From positions 1 through 22,963 of the IMG/VR virus record IMGVR_UViG_2802429249_000003: a stretch of DNA of 22,963 nt, one strand, 5' to 3'. Shown one piece after another: positions 1-3,000 of this stretch. Every line of letters starts with the position of its first letter. Position 1 is the first letter of the stretch. The position numbers are program-made. The DNA is from a virus (Duplodnaviria; Heunggongvirae; Uroviricota; Caudoviricetes).

Positions 1-3000
1 CTGGTCGCTGGTCGCTGGTCGCTGGTCGCTGGTCGCTGGTCGCTGGTCGCTGGTCGCTGGTCGCTGGTCGCTGGTCGCTGGTCTGGCAGCATAGGATCAT
101 CCTTTTTCGAAAATCAATGCTTTTTTTTGGAAAGTACTTAAAAATTATCGTGCTGGCTGAATCAATAACCAGCAAAGGGTATTAAGTGTGGGTGCGTTGA
201 GGATGCCTGACACATCAGAGATGGCGGGAGATTACTTCCCCCGCCTGGTCACTCTTACTCTCCAGATTCGTAGTCTACGAAAACAGCGACCTCCGTCTGG
301 CCGGTTCGGATTCGTACCTCGCAGAGGTCTTTCCTCGTTACCAGTGCCGTCACTATGACGGTTAAACAGATGACGATCAGGGCGATTAGCATCGCTTTTT
401 GCTGCTTCATAGCCTGCTTCTCCTTGCCTTTCGGCACGTAAGAGGCTAACCTGATGTTGTCATGCATAGGGAGCCTCAGATTAATGTTAAGCGTCTTGCC
501 GGACGCATAATGTTAACTGGGGCTTTTATCTATCTGCCTTTTGGTGTTCATGCCTGAGACAGATAGCCTCAAGCACCCGCAACAATTCTACAAAAAATCA
601 TCTCAATTTCAATTTTACTGTATTTCTGCAACCAGCCTTCCAGATGAGCCGCGCCCAACATATCTGTCCATTTCCAGTCTGATATCAAGCATCATCAACA
701 TCCCATCAACTATCCCTTCAGCCTTTTGCAACAAACGACCAACCCAGCAATCCGAACGACCATGCTTTCGTGCCAGTGCCATAAACGTCATTCCTCTTAC
801 GTAATAATCCACCAGCAAATCATGCAAATCACTGTTATTCTTTTTCAGGCGAGCCATGCATCCACAAATGATCATCGCATCATCATCACAACATTGCGGA
901 CGTGATTTAACCTTCGAAGGAATAAGCCCCTTGAATCCAGCAGCAATGGATGACCATGTAACATCCTCGTGGTTATTTGCCACCCACGCCCCCCAACGCT
1001 CAAGAACCATCTGAATATCACGCATCAGCGCAGCACCTCCTGCACCAGTTTTTCAAACTTTCCGACTCTGGTTTCCAGCTCTGCCACACAATCCACCAGC
1101 TCATCCACTGCTTTTTGTGCGCGATGTTTCGCCTGCATCAGTTCCCTGAGCGCTGGCACCATATCCCGACGAATGGCATCTTTTGTTACACCTGTTTTTT
1201 CCAGTTGTTCCGCCTGTCGCAACATTTCCTGTGCCTGTTTACGCAATTGTTCAGGGGTAAAAGTCATTGTCTGGTTGTTCAAAAGAAACGCTCCATCTTA
1301 CTGCTGTCAGTTCGTTTGTTGCTGTATCTGCGCGGCTGGGGCTGCTGCATTGGAGTGGAAAGAATCTGTGCGCTTTCCTGATCCACAGGCAGAAAATGTC
1401 CGTTATAAAAACGCCGGTAAATCGTCCCCAGAGAACCGTTACGTTGTTTCGTGATATTGATTTCTGCTATGCCCCTGGCCTGCGTATCCGGGTTGTACAC
1501 TTCATCCCTGTAAAGCATCAGAATGATGTCTGCATCCGCCTCTATTTCTCCGGAATTTTTCAGGTCTGAGTTCATAGGGCGTTTATTGGGCCTGGACTCC
1601 ACACCACGGGAAAGCTGGCTCAGCGCAATCAACGGAAAACCACCGGATTTTGCCAGGCCTTTAAGCCCCTTTGAGATTTCACCCACGGCAAGGTCATGAC
1701 GCCCCGTGGTTCGGGTTTTTATCAGCCCGAGATAATCAACCACCACCAGCGCCGTTTCCGGATGTTTAATCAGGTGATGTTTCGTTGTTGCGCATATCTC
1801 ATCAATGGCCAGGTTCGCCTGGTCCACCATCCAGATATTGCGCCCGGTCATCCGCCCCACTCCTTGTGAGAAACGTGCCCAGTCTTCGTCTTCAAAGTGA
1901 GCGACGGATTTCAGGCGTGATACCGGCATTCCTCCGGCCGCAGATACCATGCGTTCACCAATCTGGATGTTCGCCATTTCCATTGTGAACAGAAGAACAC
2001 CATGCCCCTGCTCAGTCACCTTGTCGATGATATCCAGCGCCAGTTCGGTTTTGCCCATCGAAGGACGAGCCGCAATAAATACCAGGTCGCCGGGTTCCAT
2101 ACCGCCTGTTTTTGCGTCCAGTTCATCAATACCGGTCATTAACGTCCTGGATTTCTCCAGCCCCAGATTCCGGCATTCAACACGCTCAACCACCTCCGGA
2201 AGCACATCATCAATATGTACCGGCTGAATAACGCCCTTTTCCGTCGACAATGAGGCCATCATGTTCTGCGCAGCCTTCAGGGCATCTTCAGCTGCTTCAC
2301 AGGTATGCGCATCTCGTAATTTCTGCAGCGCCTCATTCAGTGTTTTTTCTGCATCGCGCAATGCGGCATTGCGCCGCAACGCTGCAACATAGTGCTCCAG
2401 TGACGACTTCACCCAGGTTTTGCGCCCTGTATCAGTAATCACCGGGGCAAGTTCCGGCATCTCATTGCACAGCAGCACAGGATCAATCACACCTGAAACA
2501 CGGGCCTGTCTGCAGATGCCTGTGTAGATATCCCGATACGCTCGTACAGAAAAAACGTCCGCCGGTAGTGTGGCCAGAATATCCATCACTTCATGATCTG
2601 CCCCACGCAGAAAGAACGCGCCAATCACAGCACCTTCCAGGTCATCGTTACGCCAGACTGGTGTTGTCATGCAGCCACACCTCTGATACGAGAACGATAG
2701 CTGGGCCAGTTAAACGACAACCAGTTGCGTCCCCCGTCTGTGATCCTGTCGGCAATTCGGGGACTGATGAACGCCCACAACTCTTCCGGTGAGAGATTAC
2801 TGATCAGGATGGTGGGCAAGATACTTTCGTACCGGGCGTTGATAATTTCCTGCAAAATAGCCATTTCAGCCGCACTGCCAAACTGAACGCCGACTTCGTC
2901 GATGATCAGCAAATCCATTGACGCATAATGCTCAATAACTTCATCCGCTGTTTTTTCGCTGTCATTCCGCCAGCAGTTTTTCACAGCACGGGTAAGGCGC

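Follow-up and report, generated by a model that had tools for sequence, protein, structure and literature searches.

The closest described counterpart of the locus analyzed here is neuO, a gene of prophage CUS-3 in Escherichia coli K1. In neuO, an AAGACTC unit begins 2 nt after the ATG and is repeated in 2–93 copies. The gene is ON only at multiples of three, and the encoded RLKTQDS heptads are unstructured and raise the activity of the enzyme. Repeat-controlled methyltransferases of Type I (hsdM/hsdS) and Type III (mod) systems, and the phasevarions that go with them, are well known; a survey of phase-variable Type I systems does not mention E. coli. A third point of comparison is the group of enzymes that includes BcgI, Sau42I and BsaXI, in which an endonuclease and a gamma-class N6-adenine methyltransferase are fused, and a separate S subunit contains two domains.

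We analyzed a window of 22,963 bp from a lambdoid prophage, by which we mean the whole stretch of DNA under study, and found at its edge a (CGACCAG)n array. We consider it likely that this array forms the 5' part of the coding sequence of a BcgI-like (Type IIB) restriction-modification gene carried by the prophage and serves as a slipped-strand contingency locus. As in neuO, heptanucleotide units immediately follow the ATG of an accessory gene carried by an E. coli prophage, range from a few to approximately 100 copies with three units per heptad, and are followed by a full-length ORF in certain copy-number classes; the N-terminal heptads are unstructured in neuO and predicted to be so here. 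The two loci differ in the unit and heptad (AAGACTC/RLKTQDS in neuO, CGACCAG/DQRPATS here), in the product (an O-acetyltransferase with a left-handed beta-helix versus a restriction-modification enzyme), in the carrier (a P22-like phage versus a lambdoid Q-lysis region) and in the presence here of two start codons in two frames. The locus would work in the manner of neuO but is not a member of the NeuO poly-psi family.

The locus also resembles the phase-variable methyltransferases, in that a repeat tract is located in a methyltransferase-bearing restriction-modification ORF whose expression depends on the tract length. However, those tracts mostly have units of 1–5 nt and occur in host-adapted pathogens such as Haemophilus and Neisseria, whereas the unit here is 7 nt and the tract extends up to 840 bp. 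Unlike the Type I and Type III systems, it would affect a fused subunit of Type IIB-like architecture that is carried by a prophage. The fused architecture with a separate two-domain S subunit is shared with BcgI, Sau42I and BsaXI, and the phage origin with Sau42I, as phage phi-42 is the source of that BcgI-like system. In contrast to the locus described here, no repeat tract was found reported for those enzymes, and the identity to the phi-42 system is just 28%. The arrangement of two start codons recalls lic1 of Haemophilus influenzae, where ATGs in different frames ahead of a coding (CAAT)n repeat give strong, weak and off states, although lic1 has a tetranucleotide unit and is a chromosomal LPS gene of a different organism. 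Searches of the openly readable literature for the locus, the unit, the heptad, phase-variable restriction systems of E. coli and MLVA names retrieved no description of it.

The window corresponds to the complete contig PTSK01000046.1 of the draft assembly GCA_002965205.1. An earlier note, made from the sequence alone, had described a perfect array of almost 12 units at the edge of the window. The analysis with Tandem Repeats Finder confirmed a CTGGTCG array of period 7 with 11.9 copies, 100% matches and 0 indels over the first 83 bp, in agreement with the raw sequence. Chance is no realistic explanation for 83 periodic bases without a mismatch. The array is open in all six frames, each with a repeating heptapeptide, as the note had also stated. 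Since the unit length of 7 equals 1 modulo 3, the three frames of each strand give one cyclic heptapeptide, and only two distinct peptides are encoded: the minus strand specifies DQRPATS and the plus strand LVAGRWS.

Because the array abuts the contig end, the copy number in the window is a lower bound; the value of 12 is the point inside the array at which the assembler stopped and not the true copy number. The suspicion that the array extends to the left of the window proved justified, since it is cut by the contig end and a methylase contig named for the same organism begins inside the repeat. NCBI lists the Q protein of the window under Escherichia sp. MOD1-EC6144, and an 'N-6 DNA methylase, partial' of MOD1-EC6144 (P0137), whose product begins PATSDQRPATSDQRPATSKSRK / PATSDQRPATSDQRPATSKSRKTVKSVEP, is encoded on a contig of 54,692 bp. 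That contig is the other side of the broken array, a link that rests on the NCBI organism names. In a contig of a sister assembly (L162), the order is array, enzyme gene, S gene, small genes and holin gene, which places the locus between Q-hok and the lysis cassette.

The position at the very end of a draft contig could also mean that the array is absent from the genome or was made by the assembly, and contig ends can indeed hold junk, as seen in one IMG/VR contig (L166). We give this explanation next to no credence, since the identical junction and array occur internally, flanked on both sides, in one phage genome and in no fewer than 30 finished genomes, and since the CGACCAG repeat also opens the partner contig from this organism. 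As for the artefact at a contig end that the note had considered, it therefore applies to the copy number alone and not to the array itself. A k=77 de Bruijn loop, in which 83 bp would equal 77+6, was considered as the source of the array length and was discarded, as approximately 55 bp are kept on partner contigs. Many draft assemblies are broken precisely at the array, with contigs on the hok side and on the enzyme side that each end in it (L166 and L040 from IMG genome 2802429224; L016 and L032; L023, L024, L027–L029 and L038). The tract is a systematic breakpoint of draft assemblies.

The features of the window that surround the array are summarized in Table 1.

Table 1. Features at the array-bearing end of the window, with positions in the 22,963-bp stretch
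Feature	Position	Strand	Basis
(CGACCAG)n array, read as (DQRPATS)n, 5' coding part of the restriction-modification gene	1..83	-	Tandem Repeats Finder, translation, homologous loci L001, L037, L163
ATG2, probable native start, MLPDQRPATS...	90..92	-	Present in every homologous junction examined
TGA closing the third frame just upstream of the array	97..99	-	Three-frame translation, minus strand
ATG1, alternative start, second frame, MILCCQTSDQRP...	98..100	-	Frame translation
Shine-Dalgarno-like AAGGA, 7 nt upstream of ATG2	100..104	-	Read from sequence
Terminator-like hairpin, between hok and the start of the restriction gene	151..174	-	Consensus scan
hok toxin CDS	255..410	-	ORF list; Pfam HOK_GEF
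sok/hok leader	405-578	-	Rfam sok, 116.9 bits
Sigma-70-like promoter	612-585	-	Consensus scan
Antiterminator Q gene	615..1025	-	Pfam Phage_antitermQ

On the minus strand, the junction to the left of the hairpin reads AAAAAGGATGATCCTATGCTGCCAGACCAG(CGACCAG)n. The array begins 171 bp past the hok stop codon, close to the approximately 170 bp given in the note, and starts 8 nt downstream of ATG2 and 16 nt downstream of ATG1. The TGA upstream of the array closes the third frame, which is thereby left with no start codon. ATG1 is probably weak, as it is directly abutted by AAGG. Full-length ORFs can be read from ATG1 in five loci (L001, L007, L013, L037 and L163); ATG1 has been lost (GGATAAT) in two others (L012 and L017). 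Full-length alleles with at most three repeat units start with MLPDQRPAT or MLPNQRPT (P0012, P0013, P0015 and L164). The short and array-less alleles start at ATG2, which marks it as the probable native start, and ATG1 may serve as an alternative one. Promoter scans predicted no sigma-70-like promoter between the hairpin or hok and the two ATGs. Upstream read-through or Q-dependent late transcription may supply the transcript, and the position of the Q gene assigns the locus to the late region, between Q and lysis, of a lambdoid prophage. Several complete genomes carry a frameshift annotation for the adjoining hok gene (L009–L013), and in these the enzyme ORF stays intact.

Elsewhere in the window, Rfam models matched a C4 antisense RNA at 5206-5293 (84 bits) and isrK at 5318-5394 (65 bits), both on the minus strand and adjoining Rha/antirepressor-type genes; by its sequence, this region looks like a P1/P7-style immunity module in a lambdoid prophage. 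Beyond the integrase gene (12061-13260), positions 13500-22963 consist of accessory DNA that scarcely matches complete E. coli genomes. A gene for a 932-aa SEC-C-domain protein (15134-17932) provided the sole match there, at 93% identity, among the best matches listed.

The junction and array of the window were identified in 29 of 5,426 complete E. coli genomes, and also in strain E7-1N7, in phage PhiR12_3 (from ECOR13) and in at least 14 IMG/VR contigs. Every such array runs into an ORF of 681–683 aa, which is followed by a specificity-subunit gene. Thus, an ORF through the array, for which the note had proposed a check, does exist in the homologous loci: it starts on the minus strand at a Shine-Dalgarno sequence and an ATG, and continues into the enzyme. 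One IMG/VR contig (L037) is 95% identical to positions 15-4331 of the window, has the junction variant of the window (GATCCTATG) and carries 9.9 units followed by a full-length ORF of 710 aa. Conservation of the array, the two ATGs and the third-frame stop extends over divergent alleles and over E. coli, E. marmotae and cryptic Escherichia.

Many genomes carry PGAP calls on the opposite strand of the array, annotated as 'YXWGXW repeat-containing protein' or 'hypothetical protein', and the plus-strand ORF could in principle be the real gene. This is extremely unlikely. The plus-strand ORF is almost wholly encoded by the repeat, its length follows that of the array, no NCBIfam model matched it, and it is antisense to the conserved start site and the enzyme ORF. 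Moreover, a repeated 7-mer that contains no stop necessarily leaves every frame open. An example of such an antisense ORF is located at 3626-4192 on the plus strand of L001, with equivalents in L004–L012. The NCBI pipeline starts the methylase at an internal TTG, which masks the true 5' end.

The fused enzyme matched the PADLOC model REase_MTase_IIG from end to end over residues 165-830 (E=6e-232), and the neighboring S gene, located 68 nt downstream of the enzyme gene, matched the PADLOC model Specificity_II for Type II specificity subunits. The Pfam analysis identified N6_Mtase and a weak VRR_NUC in the enzyme, and two stretches of Methylase_S in the S subunit; PD...ExK and NPPY motifs were seen in the enzyme translation. 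Across 97% of its length, the enzyme is 28% identical to the Staphylococcus phage phi-42 locus, and it also matched phage genes annotated as bcgIA. A search of PDB sequences with the enzyme gave no match. The AlphaFold model, with a mean pLDDT of 65, displays an alpha/beta N-terminal domain, and Foldseek searches with this model retrieved HsdM subunits as well as two fused enzymes, DrdV and the Type IIB enzyme BsaXI, with low TM-scores (for BsaXI, E=1.4e-6 but a TM-score of about 0.28). Based on its architecture, the enzyme appears to be BcgI-like (Type IIB), a class that cuts DNA on both sides of its recognition site.

The core enzyme ORF was intact in all 21 loci, whatever the frame of the array, and the dN/dS values of the enzyme were 0.05-0.07 at dS values of 0.56-1.3. 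The enzyme gene is under purifying selection and is maintained, and we infer that the protein is active. The enzymes are 88-100% identical between loci, whereas the S subunits are only 26-60% identical in some comparisons and are represented by many different protein accessions (L001, L017, L037, L040 and L004–L014, with the S genes located left of the enzyme gene). This difference suggests an exchange of recognition domains and several candidate specificities.

The copy number varies among isolates, from 3 units (L164) to 120, the longest arrays spanning 840 bp and approximately 280 residues. Strains G1/2 and G8 have arrays of 642 and 686 bp with 0 mismatches over a flank of 4,007 bp. Span arithmetic gave 83 copies for G6/7 and, for sets of isolates from the same study, 76 and 83 copies for UCPROB-001 and UCPROB-002, 56, 83 and 58 copies for O111:H8 isolates, and 23, 30 and 23 copies for the OkiPb isolates. 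The effect of this variation on the reading frame was examined in 13 sequenced loci, where translation from ATG2 or ATG1 gives a full-length ORF (726-966 aa) or else ends just past the array, and this outcome tracks the array length modulo 3. Hence, the proposal that a change in copy number would shift the frame and give rise to phase variation is supported by the homologous loci. Of the 29 complete genomes, 8 have ATG2 in frame, 9 have ATG1 in frame and 12 have neither, with 17 of the 29 states inferred from span arithmetic. A few arrays contain irregular units of 6, 10 or 12 bp; these are possibly long-read errors, in which case the inferred state would change. The locus thus combines a unit that is not a multiple of three within an ORF, copy-number variation between isolates and a full or truncated product that depends on the array length, as is expected of a contingency locus.

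We propose that translation would start at ATG2, which has a good Shine-Dalgarno sequence, or possibly at ATG1 in the other frame. The ribosome would read the array as DQRPATS heptads and continue into the fused endonuclease-methyltransferase, with the specificity subunit provided by the separate gene that follows. Slipped-strand mispairing by plus or minus one unit would move the enzyme ORF among the frame of ATG2, the frame of ATG1 and the frame with no start; in the last state, translation from either ATG would end just past the array. Judging from the sequences, the gain or loss of one unit probably turns the enzyme on or off. Since a single subunit bears both activities, cleavage and methylation are predicted to switch together. 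From the differences between isolates, we infer frequent and reversible slippage within a clone. Mismatch repair should overlook loops of 7 nt. Among the considerations that speak against a switch, the near-even split of 8:9:12 is also expected of a neutrally drifting hypermutable tract, no promoter was predicted between hok and the ATGs, and a cell whose DNA is unmethylated could be harmed when a Type IIB enzyme is turned on.

In a rival reading, the array is a neutral or selfish microsatellite that drifts in the 5' end of a decaying gene with no adaptive role. The near-uniform frame states are in line with such drift, as are the failure to find a promoter between hok and the ATGs and the frameshifts in many of the adjacent hok genes. 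We nevertheless regard this reading as improbable, since the enzyme ORF is intact in every locus at low dN/dS values across dS up to 1.3, since the array, both ATGs and the third-frame stop have been preserved over divergent alleles in several Escherichia lineages, and since the S subunits diversify as they do in active systems.

It is also conceivable, albeit unlikely, that the main role of the repeat is to tune the protein, so that the number of disordered N-terminal heptads would modulate activity, stability or assembly and the frameshift would be a side effect. [quoted passage not shown] The great length of some arrays and the occurrence of the DQRPATS heptapeptide at the head of an unrelated Pectobacterium methyltransferase are also consistent with a function of the peptide. 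On the other hand, the full-length alleles with 0-3 units and the distant homologues with no repeat argue that the extension is dispensable for the fold, and length tuning does not explain why 12 of 29 genomes are in the start-less frame. Tuning and switching are compatible with each other, and we retain the switch as the preferred reading.

Comparison with homologues points to the origin of the array. A homologue with 66% identity starts MAKIQSVEP and is repeat-less, and homologues with 71-73% identity in Providencia, Neisseria and others also lack the array. Escherichia alleles with no array or with at most three units start MLPNQRPTNKSRK, MLPDQRPATNKSRK or MLPDQRPATSDRKSRK. The array-less homologues and the short Escherichia alleles together indicate that the array grew from native codons just after ATG2. 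The note had taken the perfect units as a sign of recent expansion or ongoing slippage. Ongoing slippage is supported, but a recent origin is not: the identical unit is located beside enzyme alleles with dS values of 0.6-1.3, which implies that the array is old and has been kept uniform by ongoing slippage.

The CGACCAG repeat was also observed outside this locus. In Pectobacterium carotovorum DSM 30168, an adenine methyltransferase gene of the EcoRI family (Pfam E=1e-130; L051, NZ_FQWI01000003.1, 6520-7662, plus strand) contains (CGACCAG)17 directly after the ATG, which reads MSTS(DQRPATS)n in frame. Its phage and plasmid homologues begin only near residue 45 and therefore have no repeat. The gene adjoins a toxin-antitoxin pair and a DUF262-like gene in a defence island. 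Thus, the same unit on the same reading strand directly follows the ATG of two unrelated enzymes, both of which have repeat-less relatives. This raises the idea that CGACCAG/DQRPATS is a recurrent and possibly portable N-terminal switch cassette for DNA methyltransferases of Enterobacterales, to which we assign a rather low probability. If true, selection would be acting on this very unit or peptide, for example through length tuning or a DNA-related function of the heptad, and not on any 7-mer.

Searches for further instances were mostly negative. The Pectobacterium-type junction had 0 matches in IMG/VR, and a protein search with MLP(DQRPATS)9 yielded no more than 7 matches, all short, and did not reveal heptad-carrying families. 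A scan of species-representative genomes for four units gave at least 120 stretches; 80 of the scanned loci were tested by tblastn, and 0 matched the enzyme, most being tracts of 4-7 copies in GC-rich MAGs. Among the matches listed, the Pectobacterium locus alone was informative. In three metagenome phages from IMG/VR (L021, L026 and L033), 9-12 units of the heptamer follow ATGTGTGGGCGAAG and precede (CACCAG)4; a coding switch of a recognizable gene was ruled out for these, as only ORFs of 56-65 aa result. In the Planctomycetota MAG JALHRW01, heptamer arrays were observed on many contigs, often at their ends (L042, L047, L055, L056, L060 and others), and look like a repeat dispersed throughout that genome, with no relation to the Escherichia locus.

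The tract has practical consequences, in that it breaks short-read assemblies and gives rise to spurious antisense 'YXWGXW repeat' proteins and to truncated HsdM starts in the NCBI pipeline; it could also be used as a highly discriminating VNTR marker. For the biology of the organism, E. coli is usually considered poor in repeat-driven contingency loci, with neuO as the textbook exception. The locus described here looks like a second case in E. coli, again with a 7-nt unit and again borne by a prophage. If the enzyme does switch, the barrier to foreign DNA would flip in lysogens among O111, other STEC/EPEC, commensal (Symbioflor) and cryptic Escherichia lineages, as would the methylation mark on the phage that they release and possibly their methylome.
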